Of a stretch of DNA of 64,000 nt, positions 43,745 to 55,535 are shown one piece after another. Source of the DNA: Escherichia coli (GTDB lineage Bacteria > Pseudomonadota > Gammaproteobacteria > Enterobacterales > Enterobacteriaceae); NCBI RefSeq assembly GCF_044324875.1, contig NZ_CP172185.1; one strand, given 5' to 3'. Position 1 is the first letter of the stretch. Each line of letters opens with the position of its first letter. The notes under the pieces are model-generated. The model had not been told where the DNA came from. It made no database searches and saw only the letters and a program-made list of their open reading frames with translations. A program made the position numbers and the translations under genes.

Positions 43745-46150
43745 ATGTCCTTAAAAGGTCTTCACTTTACGCTGGAGGTTGACGGCCAGGAGCCGGACAC
43801 CTTTGCAGTGGTGCATTTCAGGTTAATCCAGAACCAGTCTTATCCGTTTGTGATGAGTGTGGATGTTGCCAGCGACTCTTTTATGCAGACGGCGGAGATG
43901 CTGCTGGAGAAGAAGGCGACGCTGACCATCTGGCAGGGCGTCATCCCGCTGCGTTATGTCACCGGCGTGGTGGCGGGTTTTGGCATGCAGGAGAACAATG
44001 GCTGGCAGATGCGTTACCACCTGCGTATCCAGCCGCCGTTATGGCGGTGCGGGCTGCGGCAGAACTTCCGTATCTTCCAGCAGCAGGATATCCGGACGAT
44101 ATCGGCCACGTTACTGAACGAGAACGGCGTCACGGAGTGGACGCCGCTGTTTTATGAGGACCATCCGGCGCGGGAGTTCTGTGTCCAGTACGGGGAGTCG
44201 GACCTGGCGTTTCTGTCCCGGCTGTGGGCGGAGGAGGGTCTTTTCTTCTTTGAGCGGTTTGCGGCGGACAGTCCGGAGCAGAAGCTGACGCTGTGCGACG
44301 ATGTGGCGGGGCTGTCACAGGCGGGGGAGTTTCCGTTTAACCCGGACACATCGGCAGGTGCGGAGACGGAGTGTGTCAGTATGTTCCGTTATGAGGCGCA
44401 TGTCCGCCCGTCATCGGTGCAGAGCCAGGATTACACCTTTAAGGTGCCGGACTGGCCGGGGATGTATGAGCAGCAGGGTGAGAACCTGAACGGACAGCTG
44501 GAGCAGTATGAGATATTTGATTATCCGGGAAGGTACAAGGATGAACAGCACGGCAAGGATTTCACGCTGTACCAGATGGAGAGCCTGCGCAGTGATGCGG
44601 AAAAGGCCACAGGGCAGAGTAATTCGCCGAAGCTGTGGCCGGGAACGCGGTTTATGCTGACGGGGCATCCGCAGAAGATGCTGAACCGTGAATGGCAGGT
44701 GGTACAGAGCATACTGTCAGGAAACCAGCCGCAGGCGCTGCACGGCAGCCAGGGAAAGGGAACCACGCTGGGCAATCAGTTAGAGGTGATACCGGCGGAC
44801 CGGACGTGGCGTCCACGGCTGCAAAACAAACCGAAGGTGGACGGGCCACAGAGCGCCATCGTCACCGGTCCTGCGGGAGAGGAAATCTTCTGCGATGAAC
44901 ATGGACGGGTACGGGTGAAGTTCCACTGGGACCGTTATCACGGGATGACGGAGGCGAGTTCATGCTGGGTGCGGGTATCGCAGGCGTGGGCGGGGCCGGG
45001 GTTCGGTAACCTGGCGATACCACGGGTGGGTCAGGAGGTGATAGTGGACTTCCTGAACGGCGACCCGGACCAGCCGATAATCATGGGGCGGACGTACCAT
45101 GAGGACAACCGTTCGCCGGGCGACCTGCCGGGAACGAAGACGCAGATGACCATCCGGTCAAAAACCTATAAAGGAAGCGGATTTAACGAGCTGCGGTTTG
45201 AAGACGCCACCAGTAATGAGCAGGTGTATATCCATGCCCAGAAGAACATGGATACGGAGGTGCTCAACGACCGGACAACGGATGTGAAACATGACCATAC
45301 GGAAACCATCGGGAACGACCAGAAGATAACGGTGGTGAAGGGGCAGACGGTTCAGGTCGGGACCAGAAAAGAAGGGGGCCACGACCAGAGTATCACGGTG
45401 GCGAACGACCGGTGCATCACGGTACGTAATGACCAGACGCTGCAGGTGACGAATGACCGGACGGTGAGCGTGAGTAATGATGACGGCCTGTACGTCAGAA
45501 ATGACCGTAAAGTGACGGTGGAAGGGAAGCAGGAGCATAAGACGACGGGGAACCATATCAGTCTGGTGGAGGGAAAGCACAGCCTGGTGGTGAAGGGGAA
45601 CCTGGCGAGGAAGGTGAGTGGCGCGCTGGGGATAAAGGTGGACGGGGATATCGTGCTGGAGAGCAGCAGCCGGATAAGCCTGAAGGTGAGTGGCTCGTTT
45701 GTGGTCATCCATTCAGGGGGCGTGGACATCGTCGGGCCGAAAATCAATCTCAATAGCGGCGGTAGTCCGGGGACGCCGGTGCCGGCGCTGCAACCGGCGG
45801 TGCTGAAGACACTGGGGGATGAGAAGAGTGGTGATGGCAGTGATTCCGGAGAAGAAAATGAAGACTCTGGAGGGAACTGCGTGACCGGAAGTGGTGGTGA
45901 TGATCGAGGTGACGATGAGGATGAACCTGAAAAATATACTCTCCAGTTCCATTTTACAGACGATGACGGGATACCGTATTCAGAAACCCGCTACATTGCC
46001 TTCTTTGAGGATGGCACGCAGACCCGCGGAGAAACGGATGAAGAGGGGTATACAGAGCGTTTTTTTGTATCTAGCAAACATGAAATTAAAGTGAAGTTGT
46101 TATTTGCGAATGATGATTTTCTCTCAATGGAAGGACACTATGGACGATAA
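43745..46150 (+). CDS. vgrG: type VI secretion spike protein VgrG with acidic C-terminal extension
   Basis: 801-aa ORF; gp27/gp5-like N-terminal region, repeat-rich beta-helix, then Asp/Glu-rich tail. Confidence 0.9.
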   Translation: MSLKGLHFTLEVDGQEPDTFAVVHFRLIQNQSYPFVMSVDVASDSFMQTAEMLLEKKATLTIWQGVIPLRYVTGVVAGFGMQENNGWQMRYHLRIQPPLWRCGLRQNFRIFQQQDIRTISATLLNENGVTEWTPLFYEDHPAREFCVQYGESDLAFLSRLWAEEGLFFFERFAADSPEQKLTLCDDVAGLSQAGEFPFNPDTSAGAETECVSMFRYEAHVRPSSVQSQDYTFKVPDWPGMYEQQGENLNGQLEQYEIFDYPGRYKDEQHGKDFTLYQMESLRSDAEKATGQSNSPKLWPGTRFMLTGHPQKMLNREWQVVQSILSGNQPQALHGSQGKGTTLGNQLEVIPADRTWRPRLQNKPKVDGPQSAIVTGPAGEEIFCDEHGRVRVKFHWDRYHGMTEASSCWVRVSQAWAGPGFGNLAIPRVGQEVIVDFLNGDPDQPIIMGRTYHEDNRSPGDLPGTKTQMTIRSKTYKGSGFNELRFEDATSNEQVYIHAQKNMDTEVLNDRTTDVKHDHTETIGNDQKITVVKGQTVQVGTRKEGGHDQSITVANDRCITVRNDQTLQVTNDRTVSVSNDDGLYVRNDRKVTVEGKQEHKTTGNHISLVEGKHSLVVKGNLARKVSGALGIKVDGDIVLESSSRISLKVSGSFVVIHSGGVDIVGPKINLNSGGSPGTPVPALQPAVLKTLGDEKSGDGSDSGEENEDSGGNCVTGSGGDDRGDDEDEPEKYTLQFHFTDDDGIPYSETRYIAFFEDGTQTRGETDEEGYTERFFVSSKHEIKVKLLFANDDFLSMEGHYGR

Positions 46151-46523
46151 TAATCAAACTTCTGGACAACCAAAGCCAGAGCCAGAAGAATGTGTGAAAG
46201 AGCAAAAAATAACTGATCATTTTAAAATAATGATTGATAAGGCTCGTAAGGCACAAAAGTTGGTTTTGATAAAAAGAGCAGATGATCTTTTGAGATGGGG
46301 AGCACAGGAGGAATATGATTTCAGTAAGATCTTTGGTGTTAAAGGAAATAAGGAGGTTAATATAAGAAAATATGGACATAATACAGGTAGGCGCATGAAT
46401 GCTAGATTTCTTATGATGGATGGTGTGAGAAGATTAATGATTATAGCTAATGATTTAACAATGAGCAGTTTTATAAATTATATGGATTTGCCCCTATATT
46501 TCCAGACATCTGTTATCACTTAA
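46140..46523 (+). pseudogene. AT-rich gene translationally coupled to vgrG (candidate T6SS cargo/adaptor), 3' end interrupted by IS2
   Basis: ATG at 46140 overlaps the vgrG stop; ORF runs into the IS2 terminal repeat at 46483; removing IS2 and one TSD copy restores a 137-codon ORF ending at 53243. Confidence 0.6.
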
Positions 46524-47059
46524 CCCATTACAAGCCCGCTGCCGCAGATATTCCCGTGGCGAGCGATAACCCAGCGCACTATGCGGATGCCATTCGTTAT
46601 AATGCTCGAACGCCTCTGCAAGGTTCTTTGCTGCCGTTAACCCGTCTGGTTTGGGCATGATACTGATGTAGTCACGCTTTATCGTTTTCACGAAGCTCTC
46701 TGCTATTCCGTTACTCTCCGGACTCCGCACCGCCGTGTTCTTCGGTTCAAGTCCCAACATCCGGGCGAACTGGCGTGTTTCATTAGCCCGGTAGCATGAA
46801 CCATTATCGTAACCGGCTCATTTAAACCGTCTGGTCTGTTTCCTCCGGCTCTACAAAAATAATGTCCATCATTTTTAATGGACACTATCGTATGAAACAC
46901 CGGACCTGGATCACTGAAGCTTTACGTCTTCACTTTGAAGAACATTTACCCCGGGTTGTGGCCGGGCGTCGCCTGGGTGTACCAAAATCAACAGTTTGTA
47001 GTATGTTCGTGCGCTTTCGGAGAGCTGGCCTTTCGTGGCTGCAAAATGGCATCTGAATC

Positions 47060-47160
47060 GATCGCAGTTTGGCATTCGAATCGATCATGATTTGGCATCC
47101 ATCTCCGATCACAGTTTGGCATCACAATCGATCACGATTTGGCATGCTTCCGATCATTGA
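47060..47160 (+). repeat. IS21-family subterminal multiple repeats (tttggcat motifs spaced about 20 bp apart)
   Basis: five or six copies of gatc...tttggcat upstream of istA; inverted copies (atgccaa) at the other end near 49640-49650. Confidence 0.6.
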
Positions 47161-47241
47161 TTGGCATCCTGCCAGTCACTCCGGGAATTAACTCTTTTCA
47201 CCACAGTCTCCATTGCCGTGTTTAAACCAGTGGAGACGTCA

Positions 47242-48807
47242 ATGTCCAGAAAGAGAAAATCCAGGAGCACTATGGAAACCTGTTTTAAGATCCTTCAGCT
47301 CAAGTTCGACAAGAAGCTGACTAACCGTTGTATCGGACTGACGTTACACATCAGCGCCTCAACCGTTTTTGAGGTTCTTGCCCGCTTCAAAGCCTCTTCT
47401 CTGTCATGGCCATTACCTGCTGATATATCCCATGACACGCTGGAGAAACTCATTTTTCCGCCCAAAGACACCTTTGCATCAGAGCTTGTAATGCCTGACA
47501 TGTTGTACTTCGATACGGAAATGAGAAAACCAGGTGTGACGCGGCAACTGTTGTGGATGGAATACAAGGCACAGGCGGGTAACAAAGCGATGGGATACTC
47601 GCACTTCTGCCGTTGCTACCGGGAGTGGAAAAAAACGCGACGTCTCTCCATGCGCCAGGAGCATCGTGCCGGCGAAAAGCTTTTTATCGACTTCTGTGGT
47701 CCTACGGTTCCTGTTATTAATCCGGACACCGGTGAGATACGCCGCGTGGCAATCTTCGTGGCCGTAATGGGGGCGTCCAACTATACCTACGTTGAAGCGT
47801 GCGAAGGTCAGGACATGATGTCATGGTTAAATGCCCACAGCCGTTGCCTGACCTTCCTGGGCGGCGTACCGAAGCTGCTCATCCCCGATAACCTCAGAAG
47901 CGCAGTGAAAAAGGCCGATCGATATGAGCCTGTCATCAACGACAGTTATCAGGCACTGGCTGAGCACTATGGCACGGTTATCATCCCGGCCCGACCACGC
48001 AAACCTAAAGATAAACCAAAAGCAGAAAACGGCGTCCTCATCGTTGAACGATGGCTTCTTGCCCGCATCCGTAATGAAACCTTCCACACGCTCAGGGCGC
48101 TGAATGCGCGCCTTAGGGAGTTACTGACAGACATGAATAACCGGCCAATGAAGGGGTACGGCAATCAAACCCGTGCAGAACGCTTCCGCATACTGGATGC
48201 GCCAGCACTCTCTCCGCTGCCTCTGGCACCTTATGAATACACGGAATACAAAGCTGTGAAGGTTGGCCCTGACTACCACGTTGAATATGCCCGTCACTGG
48301 TACTCCGTTCCACACGAACTGGTCGGTCAGCGTCTGTCACTGAAGGCGGGGCAGTCGGTGGTACAGCTCTGGCACAAGGGGCAGTGTGTGGCGCAACATC
48401 CGCGCAGCACACATGAATATAAACACACAACCAATCCGCTTCACATGCCAGAGCGCCACCGGCAGCACGGGACATGGACACCGGAACGCCTGATCGAGCA
48501 GGGAAAACGTACGGGCCCGTCCACAGGCCGGGTGGTTGAATCCATGCTGAAGGCAAAACCCCATCCGGAACTGGCTTATCGTGCAGTTCTGGGGCTGCTG
48601 GCACTTCAGAAAAAATACGGCCCGGAACGGCTGGAAAAGGCCTGTTACGTTGCCCTGCACTATAACGCCCCTGACAGACGCTTTATCGACAATCTGCTGC
48701 GTCACCATCGGGAGAACCTGGAGCTTCCATTATCCCGCCAGGGCGAACAACATCCGGCATATGCTTCAGAGCATGAAAACCTGCGTGGTCCGGGCTACTA
48801 CCACTGA
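47242..48807 (+). CDS. istA: IS21-family transposase IstA
   Basis: about 521 aa from MSRKRKS with N-terminal HTH and integrase-like core; ORF track begins at 47161. Confidence 0.85.
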   Translation: MSRKRKSRSTMETCFKILQLKFDKKLTNRCIGLTLHISASTVFEVLARFKASSLSWPLPADISHDTLEKLIFPPKDTFASELVMPDMLYFDTEMRKPGVTRQLLWMEYKAQAGNKAMGYSHFCRCYREWKKTRRLSMRQEHRAGEKLFIDFCGPTVPVINPDTGEIRRVAIFVAVMGASNYTYVEACEGQDMMSWLNAHSRCLTFLGGVPKLLIPDNLRSAVKKADRYEPVINDSYQALAEHYGTVIIPARPRKPKDKPKAENGVLIVERWLLARIRNETFHTLRALNARLRELLTDMNNRPMKGYGNQTRAERFRILDAPALSPLPLAPYEYTEYKAVKVGPDYHVEYARHWYSVPHELVGQRLSLKAGQSVVQLWHKGQCVAQHPRSTHEYKHTTNPLHMPERHRQHGTWTPERLIEQGKRTGPSTGRVVESMLKAKPHPELAYRAVLGLLALQKKYGPERLEKACYVALHYNAPDRRFIDNLLRHHRENLELPLSRQGEQHPAYASEHENLRGPGYYH

Positions 48808-48823
48808 CAGAAGGAACAACAGT

Positions 48824-49579
48824 ATGAGTGATAACCTGTTAAACAAACTGACCCAACTGAAACTCCCGGCGATGGCCGGGAGCCTGATACGGCAGCGGGA
48901 AACGCCTCAGACCTACGACGAACTGTCGTTCGAGGAAAGGCTGACGCTGCTGGTTGATGACGAGCTTCTGAGCAGGGAAAACAGCCGTGTGGCACGGTTG
49001 AGAAAAAATGCCGGCCTGAAATACCAGGCAACACCGGAAGGGCTGCGCTATCCGGCCTCAAGAGGTCTGCGGGCTGAACAGATGAGAGAACTGCTGAACG
49101 GCCACTACATAACCCACAGGAAAAACCTGCTGATAACCGGTCCGACAGGATGTGGCAAGAGCTGGATAGCCAATGCGCTGGGCGAACAGGCATGTCGACA
49201 GAAACACAGCGTCCGGTACTGTAGAACCGGGCGATTACTGGAACAACTGGCTCAGGGACGTGTTGATGGCAGCTGGCTGAAATATCTGAAACAGTTGCAA
49301 AAAATACAGGTTCTAATCCTGGACGATCTGGGGCTGGAACAGTTAAGTAACGCCCAGTGTAATGACCTTCTGGAGCTCATAGAGGATCGTTACGGACAAA
49401 GCAGCACGATAGTGGTAAGCCAGTTCCCGGTAGATAAATGGCATGGTCTGATGGAGAACCCAACAACAGCAGATGCCATCCTGGACAGACTGGTACATAA
49501 CTCACACCGAGTGGTCCTTCAGGGAGAGTCACTGAGGAAAAATCCCCCGGTAGTGGAAAGCAGCGAAAAAACGCGTTAA
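48824..49579 (+). CDS. istB: IS21-family ATP-binding helper IstB
   Basis: 252-aa ORF with Walker A GPTGCGKS and Walker B LILDDLG. Confidence 0.9.
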   Translation: MSDNLLNKLTQLKLPAMAGSLIRQRETPQTYDELSFEERLTLLVDDELLSRENSRVARLRKNAGLKYQATPEGLRYPASRGLRAEQMRELLNGHYITHRKNLLITGPTGCGKSWIANALGEQACRQKHSVRYCRTGRLLEQLAQGRVDGSWLKYLKQLQKIQVLILDDLGLEQLSNAQCNDLLELIEDRYGQSSTIVVSQFPVDKWHGLMENPTTADAILDRLVHNSHRVVLQGESLRKNPPVVESSEKTR

Positions 49580-50182
49580 AAAGCGGTAGAAAAAGTTAAG
49601 TTCCCGGTTGATCGAATGGATGCGAATCGCTGATCGGACTTCGATGCCAATCCGTGATCGAATAGAGCGGAATACGCAGTGGCCTTTGCCCGCAGGCATG
49701 TCGGAGCAGGAACTTGATGCCTGCCTTTACGGACAATTTTCCACGGTACCAGTCGTACGTCCTGAAAGCACCGTTATATCCGAAGCCCCCGTGGTAAAAA
49801 AACGTCCCCGGCGGCCCAACTTCCCTTATGAGTTTAAAATCGCCTTAGTGGAGCAGTCACTGCAGCCCGGAGCCTGTGTGGCGCAGATCGCCCGGGAAAA
49901 CGGAATCAACGATAACCTGCTCTTCAACTGGCGCCATCAATACCGGAAAGGTGGCCTGCTGCCTTCCGGAAAAAATATGCCGGCACTGCTTCCCGTGACG
50001 TTAACGCCGGAGCCGGATAATAAAATCCCGGCCCCCGCACAGGAACCAGAGCAGATAAATACACCGTCCGACAGTCTGTGTTGTGAGCTGGTTCTGCCGG
50101 CCGGAACTCTCAGGCTTAAAGGTAAACTGACGCCGGCGTTATTACAGACACTTATCCGCGAAATAAAAGGGAGCAGCCACTG

Positions 50183-50530
50183 ATGATATCTCTCCCTGCA
50201 GGTTCGCGTATCTGGCTGGTTGCAGGTATCACCGATATGCGAAATGGCTTTAACGGCCTGGCATCAAAAGTTCAGAACGTCCTGAAGGATGACCCGTTCT
50301 CCGGACACCTGTTCATCTTCCGCGGACGCCGGGGTGACCAGATAAAAGTGTTGTGGGCTGACAGTGACGGACTGTGCCTCTTCACCAAACGCCTGGAGCG
50401 GGGCCGCTTCGTCTGGCCAGTCACCCGTGACGGCAAGGTGCACCTTACTCCGGCTCAGTTATCCATGCTTCTTGAAGGTATCAACTGGAAGCACCCGAAA
50501 CGAACGGAACGCGCTGGAATCCGCATATAA
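50183..50530 (+). CDS. IS66-family TnpB (orf2)
   Basis: 115-aa ORF recognised as IS66 family Orf2. Confidence 0.85.
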   Translation: MISLPAGSRIWLVAGITDMRNGFNGLASKVQNVLKDDPFSGHLFIFRGRRGDQIKVLWADSDGLCLFTKRLERGRFVWPVTRDGKVHLTPAQLSMLLEGINWKHPKRTERAGIRI

Positions 50531-50549
50531 CCCGTTGTAAAGTGAGGAT

Positions 50550-52121
50550 ATGGACACCTCACTTGCTCATGAGAACGCCCGCCTGCGGGCACTGTTGCAG
50601 ACGCAACAGGACACCATCCGCCAGATGGCTGAATACAACCGCCTGCTCTCACAGCGGGTGGCGGCTTATGCTTCCGAAATCAACCGGCTGAAGGCGCTGG
50701 TTGCGAAACTGCAACGTATGCAGTTCGGTAAAAGCTCAGAAAAACTTCGTGCAAAAACCGAACGGCAGATACAGGAAGCACAGGAGCGAATCAGCGCACT
50801 TCAGGAAGAAATGGCGGAAACGCTGGGTGAGCAATATGACCCGGTACTGCCATCCGCCCTGCGCCAGTCTTCAGCCCGTAAACCGTTACCGGCCTCACTT
50901 CCCCGTGAAACCCGGGTTATCCGGCCGGAAGAGGAATGCTGTCCTGCCTGTGGTGGTGAACTCAGTTCTCTGGGATGTGATGTGTCAGAGCAACTGGAGC
51001 TTATCAGCAGCGCCTTTAAGGTTATCGAAACACAACGTCCGAAACAGGCCTGTTGCCGGTGCGACCATATCGTGCAGGCACCAGTACCTTCAAAACCCAT
51101 TGCACGCAGTTATGCCGGAGCGGGGCTTCTGGCCCATGTTGTCACCGGGAAATATGCAGACCATCTGCCGTTATACCGCCAGTCAGAAATATACCGTCGT
51201 CAGGGAGTGGAGCTGAGCCGTGCCACACTGGGGCGCTGGACAGGTGCTGTTGCTGAACTGCTGGAGCCGCTGTATGACGTCCTGCGCCAGTATGTGCTGA
51301 TGCCCGGTAAAGTCCATGCTGATGATATCCCCGTCCCGGTCCAGGAGCCGGGCAGCGGTAAAACCCGGACAGCCCGGCTGTGGGTCTACGTCCGTGATGA
51401 CCGTAACGCCGGTTCACAGATGCCCCCGGCGGTCTGGTTCGCGTACAGTCCGGACCGGAAAGGTATCCATCCACAAAATCACCTGGCCGGTTACAGCGGT
51501 GTGCTTCAGGCCGATGCTTACGGTGGTTACCGGGCGTTATACGAATCCGGCAGAATAACGGAAGCCGCGTGTATGGCTCATGCCCGGAGAAAAATCCACG
51601 ATGTGCATGCAAGAGCGCCCACCTACATCACCACGGAAGCCCTGCAGCGTATCGGTGAACTGTATGCCATCGAGGCAGAGGTCCGGGGCTGTTCAGCAGA
51701 ACAGCGTCTGGCGGCAAGAAAAGCCAGAGCCGCGCCACTGATGCAGTCACTGTATGACTGGATACAGCAACAGATGAAAACACTGTCGCGTCACTCAGAT
51801 ACGGCAAAAGCGTTCGCATACCTGCTGAAACAGTGGGATGCACTGAACGTGTACTGCAGTAATGGCTGGGTGGAAATCGACAACAACATCGCAGAGAACG
51901 CCTTACGGGGAGTGGCCGTAGGCCGGAAAAACTGGATGTTCGCGGGTTCCGACAGCGGTGGTGAACATGCGGCGGTGTTGTACTCGCTGATCGGCACATG
52001 CCGTCTGAACAATGTGGAGCCAGAAAAGTGGCTGCGTTACGTCATTGAACATATCCAGGACTGGCCGGCAAACCGGGTACGCGATCTGTTGCCCTGGAAA
52101 GTTGATCTGAGCTCTCAGTAA
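50550..52121 (+). CDS. IS66-family transposase TnpC (orf3)
   Basis: 523-aa ORF with leucine-zipper N-terminus, CxxC zinc motif and IS66 DDE core. Confidence 0.85.
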
Positions 52122-52151
52122 ATATCAATACGGTTCTGACGAGTCGCTTAC

Positions 52152-52750
52152 CCATTATCCGTCAGCCACTCCACTGGAGACGACGGAAGATCGTTGCCGA
52201 AGCGGCGTTCCACCGCTCCCAGCATGACGTCCTGTACTGTTTCACTGTTGAAGCCGCCGGTAGTGACCGCCCAGTGCAGTGCCTCACGATCACAGCAGTC
52301 CAGCGCGAACGTGACACGCAGTCTCTCTCCGTTATCACAGCAGAACTCGAACCCGTCAGAGCACCATCGCTGATTGCTTTCTTTCACGGCCACTCTGCCT
52401 GTATGTGCCCGTTTCGATGGCGGTACAGCAGGTTTTCGCTCAAGCAACAGCGCATTCTGGCGCATGATCCGGTAAACACGTTTGGCATTGATCGCAGGCA
52501 TACCATCAAGTTCTGCCTGTCTGCGAAGCAGCGCCCATACCCGACGATAACCATACGTTGGCAGCTCTCCGATAACATGGTGTATACGGAGAAGCACATC
52601 CGTATCATCAGTGTGACGACTGCGGCGGCCATCCATCCAGTCATCGGTTCGTCTGAGAATGACGTGCAACTGCGCACGCGACACCCGGAGACAACGGCTG
52701 ACTAAGCTTACTCCCCATCCCCGGGCAATAAGGGCGCGTGCGCTATCCAC
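52152..52750 (-). pseudogene. insD: IS2 insD, N-terminal two-thirds, truncated by the IS66-family insertion (C-terminal part at 46494-46808)
   Basis: translation recognised as IS2 InsD up to ...VEWLTDNG, where the IS66-family end begins. Confidence 0.85.
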
Positions 52751-53073
52751 TTTTTTGCCCGTCCATATTCAACGGCTTCTTTGAGGAGTTCATTTTCCAT
52801 CGTTTTCTTGCCGAGCAGGCGCTGGAGTTCTTTAATCTGCTTCATGGCGGCAGCAAGTTCAGAGGCAGGAACAACCTGTTCTCCGGCGGCGACAGCAGTA
52901 AGACTTCCTTCCTGGTATTGCTTACGCCAGAGAAATAACTGGCTGGCTGCTACACCATGTTGCCGGGCAACGAGGGAGACCGTCATCCCCGGTTCAAAGC
53001 TCTGCTGAACAATTGCGATCTTTTCCTGTGTGGTACGCCGTCTGCGTTTCTCCGGCCCTAAGACATCAATCAT
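52708..53073 (-). CDS. insC: IS2 InsC (orfA)
   Basis: 121-aa ORF from [18 protein letters not shown] recognised as IS2 InsC. Confidence 0.9.
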
Positions 53074-53310
53074 CTGTTCTCCAATGACTAGTCTAAAAAC
53101 TAGTATTAAGACTATCACTTATTTAAGTGATACTGGTTGTCTGGAGATTCAGGGGGCCAGTCTATTATACAGGTTGTAATGAATTTGCAGCATTCGTCAG
53201 CCCAAGTAAGGATATGCCCTATATAATTAACATAGGAATTTGAGTATAGAGATGGCAAAAAAAATCCAGTAACGGGAAAGGATTCTCATGTTGCTACTTT
53301 ATGTCATGAA

Positions 53311-53613
53311 ATGTCTCATATTCAGTGGTATTATGGGGATAATAAAAAAGGTGGTATGTGGTCACAGGATTATACAACTACTGATAAATATTCAACGTGC
53401 AAAGAGGATGAAGTTTCATATGACGAACATATCCGTATTGCAACTAAACTGATCTCTAAACAAAAAGATCAAATATTCGAGAATGCATATAACATAGAAA
53501 GATATTTTGAAATAAGATTAATTGAAAGTGAGATAGACTCGATTAATGATGAAATATTAAGCAATTCAGTTAAGAAAAAAATAGCGGAATTAGAAAAAGC
53601 ACTTCTCCATTAA
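53311..53613 (+). CDS. hypothetical protein (100 aa), AT-rich
   Basis: ORF in the AT-rich segment between IS2 and the H-repeat fragment. Confidence 0.3.
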   Translation: MSHIQWYYGDNKKGGMWSQDYTTTDKYSTCKEDEVSYDEHIRIATKLISKQKDQIFENAYNIERYFEIRLIESEIDSINDEILSNSVKKKIAELEKALLH

Positions 53614-53636
53614 CTAATAAGTCGAGAAATATATTA

Positions 53637-53900
53637 ATGCTGCAAGCTATAAAAAAAATCATAATAATGACAATCGTAAATATTATATTTTTCTATTCCT
53701 TTCAATCGACTGCGGATGAAATGGTTTTAATAAAAAAATACGGGTTTGGGCTTGAGAGAGATATCAAAGGAAGGCCATTAATTTATCCTATCGAAAATTA
53801 TGATGAGTGTAAGAAAAAATGCAATCATATGAATTATATAGCGGATGTCAATGCTCAATTAGCTATGAGTAAAAAAATAACAGGATTTTTGCTAACATAA
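53637..53900 (+). CDS. hypothetical small exported protein (87 aa), AT-rich
   Basis: N-terminal hydrophobic signal-like segment ending STA, cysteines in the mature part. Confidence 0.35.
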   Translation: MLQAIKKIIIMTIVNIIFFYSFQSTADEMVLIKKYGFGLERDIKGRPLIYPIENYDECKKKCNHMNYIADVNAQLAMSKKITGFLLT

Positions 53901-53953
53901 CCTTTACTAACAATAGCTCTACCACGTATTTTTTTTCTAAATATTACCTACCT

Positions 53954-54457
53954 ATGAAAGTAAAAGATGGAAAAGGAGATGAATATGATGCGATATGCAA
54001 AAAACCATTCAGAATCAACTCTGGGAATATCACGTTGGACTACTTAGGTGGTTCATGTCCTTTTGAAATTAATACGAATCCTGAACGGTGGAATACTATT
54101 AAACCAGGTCGTAGTTTTTTGTTGAGTATAACCTTAAATGATATGTATGCCTTTATACCAGGAGATAATTATTATTTTATAAAATCATCTGGCTATAAAT
54201 TTGTTAATGACAAGTGGTTTACACTCAAATCAATCAATAATATTTTTCTTTATTTTTTAAATTTAAAAATTAATTGTGCTGATGATTTTTTTGATATTAA
54301 TAATTTTACTACATGTGATAATTTGTTATTAGATGAAAAAAAACACTTTTTTATTAATCAGTTATGGGCAATTGAGGATGAAAAAAATTCTATTTACGTC
54401 ACCCCTGATGAAATTTCTATAAGTATAGACGGCGATAACTTAAAGTTGCCATATTAG
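53954..54457 (+). CDS. hypothetical protein (167 aa), AT-rich
   Basis: ORF ending immediately before the H-repeat fragment. Confidence 0.35.
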   Translation: MKVKDGKGDEYDAICKKPFRINSGNITLDYLGGSCPFEINTNPERWNTIKPGRSFLLSITLNDMYAFIPGDNYYFIKSSGYKFVNDKWFTLKSINNIFLYFLNLKINCADDFFDINNFTTCDNLLLDEKKHFFINQLWAIEDEKNSIYVTPDEISISIDGDNLKLPY

Positions 54458-54476
54458 GAATCTGTGAAAGAACAAG

Positions 54477-54965
54477 GTGCGCCGCTTTTTTGTACTAAAT
54501 AATTCGCATTTTAGTCACGGCAGAGAAGAAATCCATCTTCATATTGTTTGCGATGTCCCTGATGAACTTATTGATTTCACGTTTGAATGGAAAGGTCAGA
54601 AGAAATTATGCGTGGCAGTCTCCTTTTGGTCAATAATAGCAGAACAAAAGAAAGAGCCAGAAATGACGGTCAGATATTATATCAGTTCTGCTGATTTAAC
54701 CGCAAAAAAGTTCGCCACAGCGATACGAAATCACTGGCACGTGGAGAATAAGCTGCACTGGCGTCTGGACGTGGTAATGAACGAAGACGACTGCAAAATA
54801 AGAAGAGGAAACGCCGCAGAATTATTTTCAGGGATACGGCACATCGCTATTAATATTTTAACGAATGATAAGGTATTCAAGGCAGGGTTAAGACGCAAGA
54901 TGCGAAAAGCAGCTATGGACAGAGACTACCTCGCGTCAGTCCTTGCGGGGAGCGGGCTTTCGTAA
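54477..54965 (+). pseudogene. H-repeat-associated (ISAs1-family) transposase, C-terminal fragment, 5'-truncated
   Basis: ...[46 protein letters not shown]... matches the C-terminus of H-rpt proteins such as YdcC; N-terminal part absent. Confidence 0.75.
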
Positions 54966-55073
54966 TCTTGCCCTGGCGATCGAATAGCGCAGATGACGGT
55001 GCTCTAAATTTGAATCTAATAAGCCGGTGTTATTTTTCATCCACTATTAAAATCTTGACACAACGAGGCAACA

Positions 55074-55535
55074 ATGAAAAAAAGCAAAAAAATTAAAACA
55101 ATGAACCATCAAAATAATAGCGGGATACAAAATCAACCAGACTATCACATCGAAATAGAAAGAAAAAATATGGTAAGATTGCTTGATGAACGTATTGATA
55201 AAGTTTACGGTTCATTGCTAGGACCAATGAAAAAGAAAAATATAGATAAAATACGTCATTTTACACTTGATGTAATGGTGTTTATTCTTGACACGAACCC
55301 TCGTGTTTGTAATAAATTATCCAGGGAAATAATATCTTTAGCGCAAAATACCTTCATTGAAAAAAACGTTAATTTTTCAACTTTTAATAATGAACAGCAT
55401 AGAATAAGGGAGTATATGAATGAAGTGGTGGAATACGATGGTTTACATGGGATAACCCCGAGATATCTTTTGTTCGTGCATCTTTTGGCCTTTTTGTCAA
55501 AATGGAAACAAAAGGTGATCATGAACATACACTAA
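55074..55535 (+). CDS. hypothetical protein (153 aa), very AT-rich
   Basis: ORF with no recognisable motif. Confidence 0.3.
   Translation: MKKSKKIKTMNHQNNSGIQNQPDYHIEIERKNMVRLLDERIDKVYGSLLGPMKKKNIDKIRHFTLDVMVFILDTNPRVCNKLSREIISLAQNTFIEKNVNFSTFNNEQHRIREYMNEVVEYDGLHGITPRYLLFVHLLAFLSKWKQKVIMNIH

Follow-up and report, generated by a model that had tools for sequence, protein, structure and literature searches.

Three nested insertion sequences with intact target-site duplications at every level in an Escherichia coli type VI secretion island

Introduction

Interruption of one insertion sequence (IS) by another is observed routinely and forms a counted category in genome surveys: four Wolbachia genomes contained 18 such cases (PMC3205602), and in Shigella sonnei and Mycobacterium tuberculosis nested ISs are handled as an established class (bioRxiv 10.64898/2026.03.18.712784). 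Among the elements relevant here, ISCro1 of the IS66 family received its name in Citrobacter rodentium ICC168 (PMC3072379) and has also been reported from E. coli ST131 (PMC8764528). IS2, a member of the IS3 family, is a known E. coli element, and ISSso4, of the IS21 family, is named from Shigella sonnei.

Here we analysed a 64-kb stretch of DNA (the window) in which the coordinates, target-site duplications (TSDs) and terminal repeats, read directly, place an ISSso4-like IS21-family element inside an ISCro1-like IS66-family element, itself inside IS2. Compared with nested ISs in general, this locus has three levels instead of two and retains all of its TSDs and element ends, a difference of degree and not of kind.

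Results

The nest interrupts a gene resembling those for type VI secretion effectors on an E. coli-group chromosome. RefSeq annotation of an uninterrupted copy of the locus in E. coli 2021CK-01784 (L006) identifies the target as an M35-family metalloendopeptidase gene lying immediately 3' of PAAR and vgrG, within a small type VI secretion island. In the window this gene overlaps the 3' end of vgrG/tssI (43745-46150), runs into IS2 and stops after 127 amino acids. Its two parts and the outermost TSD are as follows.

46140-46482, plus strand: 5' part of the M35 gene, codons 1-114 (gene start and insertion point mapped against L006)
46478-46482: left copy of the IS2 TSD, TTATA
53165-53169: right copy of the IS2 TSD, TTATA
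53170-53243, plus strand: continuation of the M35 gene, carrying a separate frameshift

That frameshift comes from the loss of 5 bp (CGCAA) between 53236 and 53237, as judged against L006 and a second genome (L001). Owing to this deletion, the M35 gene rebuilt without the nest still stops at 138 amino acids instead of 263, and the codons of its HEMSH zinc-binding motif, near 53305-53320, lie downstream and out of frame. Judged from its sequence, the M35 gene is probably dead, and the 5-bp frameshift would be unrelated to the IS nest.

The outermost element is IS2 on the minus strand, interrupted in insD, and its two parts sum to a full-length copy (326 + 1005 = 1331 bp), as a first-pass annotation of this DNA had described.

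46483-46808, minus strand: IS2 right-end part, 326 bp, with IRR (TGGATTTGCCCC...) and the C-terminal third of orfB/insD
46494-46496, minus strand: stop codon of orfB/insD, within the right-end part
52160-53164, minus strand: IS2 left-end part, 1005 bp, with IRL TAGACTGGCCCC (reverse-complemented at 53164) and the N-terminal two thirds of orfB/insD
52708-53073, minus strand: orfA/insC, 121 amino acids, within the left-end part
52750-52756, minus strand: A6G frameshift site, present as its reverse complement

Rebuilt IS2 showed 100% identity over positions 1-1331 to a copy annotated 'IS3-like element IS2 family transposase' (H1) and 99.6-99.85% identity to copies in three further genomes (L002, L004 and L005), two of which have 5-bp duplications of their own (GTGAT and TCCGG). 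Rebuilt OrfA scored 276.4 bits against PRK09413 (cut-off 229) and rebuilt OrfB 635.1 bits against PRK09409 (cut-off 597); together with the A6G motif, these models identify the orfA and orfB pair with programmed -1 frameshift and the DDE transposase characteristic of IS2 and the IS3 family. The residues of the DDE triad in OrfB are a putative assignment. The 5-bp duplication typical of the family is present as TTATA on both sides of IS2 and once at the empty site. In length, duplication, orfA/orfB organization and A6G site, this copy resembles the known E. coli IS2; it differs in that 5.35 kb of foreign IS sequence interrupts its orfB, and it would no longer be able to make its own transposase.

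The foreign DNA begins with an IS66-family element of 2699 bp (231 + 2468 bp), inserted in IS2 orfB (insD) at minus-strand codons T-D-N-G.

46801-46808: left copy of the IS66-family TSD, CCATTATC, the last 8 bp of the IS2 right-end part
46809-47039, plus strand: ISCro1-like left part, 231 bp, with the left inverted repeat GTAACCGGCTC... and tnpA codons 1-59 (start at 46862)
49684-52151, plus strand: ISCro1-like right part, 2468 bp, with the remainder of tnpA (to 50183), tnpB, tnpC and the right inverted repeat ...GAGTCGCTTAC
50183-50530, plus strand: tnpB, 115 amino acids, in the right part
50550-52121, plus strand: tnpC, 523 amino acids, in the right part
52152-52159: right copy of the IS66-family TSD, CCATTATC, IS2 orfB sequence covering the T-D-N-G codons on the minus strand

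Once rebuilt, this element aligned end to end with an ISCro1-like copy in L004 at 100% identity (2699 bp, no gaps) and with four other copies at 99.78-99.96%; these four have the same ends and 8-bp duplications. Profile models recovered the three-gene set of the IS66 family, with rebuilt TnpA at 295.8 bits against NF038385 (cut-off 150), TnpB at 128.9 bits against NF033819 (cut-off 50) and TnpC at 477.9 bits against NF033517 (cut-off 180). The 8-bp TSD and inverted repeats beginning GTAA (ends GTAACCGGCTC and GTAAGCGACTC) are likewise those of the family. The TnpC of the 100%-identical copy, WP_000381395.1, carries the RefSeq name 'IS66-like element ISCro1 family transposase', and the tnpA-tnpB-tnpC layout, the GTAA-beginning repeats and the 8-bp duplication are shared with ISCro1. 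The present copy differs from ISCro1 in that its tnpA is split by the IS21-family element; it would thereby lack TnpA and keep TnpB and TnpC. It also measures 2,699 bp, compared with 2,824 bp for ISCro1 in EC958 (PMC8764528), and its exact ISfinder name could therefore differ. Both names used here, ISCro1 and ISSso4, rest on RefSeq annotation and NCBIfam models.

The innermost element, 2639 bp at 47040-49678 on the plus strand, is intact and sits after codon 59 of the ISCro1-like tnpA.

47035-47039: left copy of the IS21-family TSD, GTGGC, the last 5 bp of the ISCro1-like left part
47272-48807, plus strand: istA, 511 amino acids
48824-49579, plus strand: istB, 251 amino acids
49679-49683: right copy of the IS21-family TSD, GTGGC, ISCro1-like tnpA sequence

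End-to-end identity to six other copies was 99.66-99.96%. An istA transposase gene followed by an istB helper ATPase gene, the arrangement of the IS21 family, was recognized by profile models (NF033546, 284.7 bits, cut-off 160; NF038214, 257.8 bits, cut-off 200). The termini are TGC...GCA (TGCAAAATGG...GGAATACGCA), and the multiple terminal repeats expected alongside TG...CA termini comprise five direct repeats of ~20 nt at 47057-47168, spaced 22-24 nt, and two more at the right end. Its IstB is identical or nearly identical to WP_001282653.1, which RefSeq names 'IS21-like element ISSso4 family helper ATPase IstB', and the element resembles ISSso4 in its istA and istB genes, its TG...CA termini and its end repeats. 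Among the three elements, this is probably the only one to keep all of its genes.

The IS21-family duplication is 5 bp here, compared with 6 bp in all six other copies examined. IS21-family elements generate TSDs of 4-8 bp. A 6-bp duplication with shifted ends was ruled out, as the intact ISCro1-like sequence is restored only by removing exactly 5 bp; the unusual length is thus fixed by excision. The insertion falls exactly in the tnpA codons for LSW|PLPA, a motif also present in IstA. Homology-guided insertion was considered and rejected, given that the TSD is that of ordinary transposition and the TnpA/IstA similarity is at the protein level (36% over 55 amino acids).

Removing the elements in silico restored each host in turn, with sequences identical to intact copies, and all element and TSD coordinates of the first-pass annotation proved exact to the base. 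Excision of 47040-49678 with one GTGGC yields the 2,699-bp IS66-family element, in which the two tnpA halves fuse in frame, as had been predicted, into a gene of 678 bp (225 amino acids) equal in length to the annotated intact gene. Excision of that element with one CCATTATC yields the 1,331-bp IS2. Excision of IS2 with one TTATA converts the flank/IS2 junction, GTTTTATAAATTATATGGATTTGCCCCTAT, into a continuous match to L006 (4,014 bases aligned, 99.85% identity), whose empty-site junction, ...AAATTATACAGG..., contains TTATA once. The duplications are intact at all three levels, and every rebuilt or intact IS protein scored above its curated NCBIfam cut-off, confirming all three families.

We set the element ends independently of the TSDs, by gap-free end-to-end alignment to intact copies with unrelated flanks; with ends fixed in this way, the chance of matching 5-, 8- and 5-bp flanks together is ~1 in 4^18 (~1.5e-11). 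As a rival reading, the nest could be an assembly artefact, or a chimera produced when scattered IS copies recombined by homology. Misassembly is classically caused by repeats of 1.3 to 2.7 kb, and the nest occurs in no other searched genome, yet neither process would place direct repeats of 5, 8 and 5 bp exactly at the ends of full-length elements or leave hosts that close perfectly on excision. Copies with reshuffled flanks, such as the IS2 in L005 and the ISCro1-like copy in L004, lack matching duplications. We consider such an origin very improbable.

Three separate transpositions, each into the previously arrived element, are by far the best reading of the locus (probability roughly 90%), and no evidence contradicts this model. 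IS2 would first have entered the M35 metallopeptidase gene, duplicating TTATA. The ISCro1-like element would then have entered IS2 orfB at the TDNG codons, duplicating CCATTATC and presumably cutting off the C-terminal ~100 residues of the IS2 transposase. Finally, the ISSso4-like element would have entered the ISCro1-like tnpA after codon 59, duplicating GTGGC. The first-pass annotation had called these events recent, with no later decay, and the 0-1 mismatches to other intact copies agree with that description, suggesting recent insertion; the intact ends and genes and the near-identity to other copies would likewise fit recent activity of the elements.

The same annotation had claimed three successive insertions in an exact order. 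The successive insertions stand as the best reading; the order in which each host reached its present site relative to the insertion inside it is the simplest reading, short of strict deduction. Nesting means that each inner element entered the sequence of its host element; the host's prior presence at its present site does not follow. Strict proof of order is precluded because a nested composite could move by transposase from another copy. A 5.3-kb ISCro1-like::IS21 composite could have entered IS2, or an interrupted IS2 (4.0 or 6.7 kb) the M35 gene, as a unit with transposase and accessory proteins supplied by other intact copies; the resulting structure would be identical and the event order different, with no sequence trace left at the locus. 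All three elements have intact ends, TnpB and TnpC of the ISCro1-like element are intact as well, and helper copies are plausible, given that most E. coli genomes carry several copies of IS2 and of ISCro1-like elements (IS2 in 4,853 of 5,426 genomes, median 4 places each). Transposases of the IS3 family work preferentially on their own encoding copy, which counts against movement of a defective IS2 in trans.

The distribution of the junctions argues further against movement as a unit. Searches that used only the left-hand junction of each pair recovered none of the three, the inner junctions included, from 5,426 complete E. coli genomes. By exact match, the ISCro1-like/IS21 junction was absent from 72,556 plasmids and from species-representative genomes, the IS2/ISCro1-like junction from metagenome contigs, and the flank/IS2 junction from metagenome and species-representative contigs. 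Within the 64-kb window, each of the three elements occurs once. We regard composite movement as improbable, and retain three separate insertions as the preferred reading.

The right-flank region is present in 217 of the 5,426 complete genomes, and none has IS2 at the M35-gene site. Over 24 kb of core flank, the best-matching complete E. coli genomes reach only 98.5% identity. Comparison of the locus in related genomes for intermediate states, as the first-pass annotation had proposed, recovered the empty site (L006) but no intermediate (an uninterrupted IS2, or one carrying just the ISCro1-like element) at the M35-gene site in the searched collections. Several genomes gave whole-region matches that looked like composites (coverage of 77% for H13-15, 61% for H16 and 46% for H29-42); in the four such genomes examined (L002 to L005), separate neighbouring elements had been joined into one match, and there were no nests. 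Nine apparent full IS2/ISCro1-like junction matches always consisted of two pieces at different spacing, and three of these nine genomes, when examined, had other arrangements. Two genomes (L007 and L012) do have ISCro1-like elements nested in IS2, inserted elsewhere in its sequence than in the window. In aggregate, the absence of each junction from the collections searched for it suggests a nest restricted to this lineage, with no sign of movement as a unit.

E. coli RM10410 and the ETEC 504239 group have independent ISCro1-like-in-IS2 nests, and the junction matches point to H75/H76 as a fourth candidate. In the three checked nests (window, RM10410 and ETEC 504239 group), the insertions lie within ~210 bp of one another in the same relative orientation, as recovered by a search that detects only that orientation and that element side. 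Mobility of the nest, or of its inner pair, as a composite appears improbable, as does a preference of ISCro1-like elements for the distal half of IS2 orfB; from the IS2 share of E. coli DNA (~0.1%), a few such nests are roughly expected by chance.

Discussion

Nested ISs are well documented, and this nest is ordinary genome wear and tear built from three known elements; it introduces no new element, mechanism or principle. Its value is that of a clean textbook case, in which nested insertions with intact TSDs can be peeled apart to give the relative order of events. For annotation, the four IS2 and IS66-family fragments represent two elements and not four remnants. Because the junctions occur in no other searched genome, they could act as a strain-specific marker. 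For the biology of this lineage, the locus records that a putative M35 peptidase effector gene linked to VgrG has been lost.

Three insertion sequences nested at exact boundaries

By reading 46300-53400 directly and checking by script, we found all six boundaries that the first-pass annotation had given for its three nested insertion sequences to be exact, confirming its observation.

Elements of the nest and their target-site duplications
46483-53164, minus strand: outer element, IS2; starts TGGATTTGCCCC at 46483, final bases ...GGGGGCCAGTCTA at 53164
46478-46482 and 53165-53169: outer-element duplication, TTATA
46809-52151: middle element, ISCro1-like, IS66 family; starts GTAACCGGCTC at 46809, final bases ...GAGTCGCTTAC at 52151
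46801-46808 and 52152-52159: middle-element duplication, CCATTATC
47040-49678: inner element, ISSso4-like, IS21 family; starts TGCAAAATGG at 47040, final bases ...GGAATACGCA at 49678
47035-47039 and 49679-49683: inner-element duplication, GTGGC

Summed over their pieces, the outer, middle and inner elements measure 1331, 2699 and 2639 bp. The joint chance of the matching flanking repeats is ~4^-18, and these repeats were not cherry-picked, because the element ends are set independently by reference copies in unrelated flanks. Neither misassembly nor recombination would create matching duplications precisely at the ends of all three elements, making it very improbable that either produced the nest.

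Excision restored a continuous IS2, as had been proposed: the rebuilt outer element shared all 1331 bases (100% identity) with genome match H1, annotated 'IS3-like element IS2 family transposase', and was 99.6-99.85% identical to three more copies. Removing the IS21-family element plus one GTGGC likewise fused tnpA in frame (678 bp, 225 aa, the length of the annotated intact gene), and the rebuilt middle element matched a copy in E. coli GZM7 (L004) at 100% without gaps over 2699 bases; identity to four other copies was 99.78-99.96%. The inner element was 99.66-99.96% identical, end to end, to six copies. ISCro1-like and ISSso4-like are names taken from RefSeq annotation, namely 'IS66-like element ISCro1 family transposase' for the GZM7 copy and 'IS21-like element ISSso4 family helper ATPase IstB' for the six inner-element copies. 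One paper gives ISCro1 a length of 2,824 bp (PMC8764528), in contrast to the 2,699 bp of the middle element in the window.

The family calls held: NCBIfam scores exceeded curated cut-offs for IstA, IstB and IS66 TnpA, TnpB and TnpC, as they did for the IS2-specific OrfA and OrfB models, and structural hallmarks were present. These are the IS2 frameshift site A6G (52750-52756, reverse complement), GTAA-starting inverted repeats with an 8-bp duplication for the IS66-family element, and TG...CA termini with five subterminal repeats of ~20 nt each for the IS21-family element.

Predicted state of each element

Judged from sequence, insertion of the ISCro1-like element in IS2 OrfB codons L-T-D-N-G would detach the C-terminal ~100 residues. 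In IS3-family transposases this stretch holds the catalytic glutamate, and its loss would leave IS2 non-autonomous. The ISCro1-like element is predicted to encode a TnpA truncated at residue 59 with intact TnpB and TnpC, and the IS21-family element appears complete. The latter's target duplication is 5 bp, versus 6 bp in 6 of 6 other full-length copies examined (L002, L003 and L008-L011: tttgaa, tatatg, cctgac, actggg, cctggc and tcgtag).

ISCro1-like TnpA residues 21-75 and IstA residues 8-62 are 36% identical (E = 4e-09), and IstA also matches the IS66 TnpA model (E = 9e-15).

Regions of TnpA/IstA likeness
46922-47039 and 49684-49730: tnpA
47293-47457: istA

The IS21-family insertion point lies exactly between W59 and P60, in the motif LSWPLPA common to both proteins; its position there is probably coincidence.

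Order of events and comparison with other nests

Apparent composites came up in a whole-region search; the four fetched (L002 to L005) were separate neighbouring elements that the search had merged. Junction-specific searches are the valid test of whether the nest occurs elsewhere. The flank/IS2 junction had no match in E. coli genomes, metagenome contigs or species-representative genomes. E. coli genomes and metagenome contigs gave no true match to the IS2/ISCro1-like junction, and the ISCro1-like/IS21 junction was absent from E. coli genomes, PLSDB plasmids and species-representative genomes. None of the three elements has a further copy in the 64-kb window. Although a defective composite moved by the transposase of another copy would leave an identical structure, nothing suggests composite transposition, given inner junctions matched nowhere in the searched collections and a window without second copies; we consider it unlikely. 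The simplest history would place all three insertions at the M35 metallopeptidase locus, IS2 first, the ISCro1-like element second and the IS21-family element last. The first-pass reading of three insertions is thus supported; its 'exact order of events' stands as this simplest history rather than as strict proof, since nesting proves no more than the entry of each inner element into the sequence of its host.

All three elements are already known and annotated, and nested insertions are routinely reported and treated as a class in IS annotation (PMC3205602; bioRxiv 10.64898/2026.03.18.712784). Leaving out matches H75/H76, we found independent ISCro1-like-in-IS2 nests in E. coli RM10410 (L007:3825-7862) and ETEC 504239 (L012:3825-7862), the latter with five similar genomes (H70-H74). 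Their insertion points are 56 and 205 bp away from the one in the window, each with its own duplication. Both are in IS2 orfB in the same relative orientation as in the window, from which no target preference can be claimed because the search design could find only that orientation and side. With three levels and every duplication intact, the window's nest is tidy, but it differs from known nests in degree.

Target gene and island

Removing IS2 and one TTATA left 4,014 bases in continuous 99.85% alignment with the uninterrupted locus of E. coli 2021CK-01784 (L006), whose order is yncG, PAAR, tssI/vgrG, an M35-family metalloendopeptidase gene, small ORFs, an ISAs1 remnant and yddH. The M35 gene there has 263 codons, and in the window IS2 entered it after codon 114. 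The right-flank region is present in 217 of 5,426 complete E. coli genomes, and IS2 occupies this M35 site in 0 of the 5,426 searched.

Compared with L006 and E. coli 16843 (L001), the M35 gene has also lost 5 bp (CGCAA) between 53236 and 53237, on the downstream side of the IS2 site and ~67 bp from it. This deletion shifts the frame, so that the rebuilt M35 frame ends after 138 aa, before the HEMSH motif is reached, and the gene would be a pseudogene even without the insertions. It would thus have been inactivated twice, by the nest and by the deletion.

The core flank (22000-46482) is 98.5% identical to the best of the 5,426 complete RefSeq E. coli genomes, with none at 99% or above, which points to a divergent lineage of the E. 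coli group that the collection lacks. Identity to strain 2021CK-01784 reaches 99.85% across the vgrG-M35 island stretch (44500-55200), which may reflect horizontal exchange of the island. Downstream, past the small ORFs that follow the M35 gene, correspondence to L006:5340-5801 places an ISAs1-family transposase remnant at ~54500-54970; related genomes have it too, and it is hence older than the nest. E. coli 16843 has, in the same island, an ISCro1-like copy (L001:3593-6291, duplication aattaaag) where vgrG meets the M35 gene, ~350 bp from the position that IS2 occupies in the window. Insertion sequences have struck this small vgrG-M35 island more than once.
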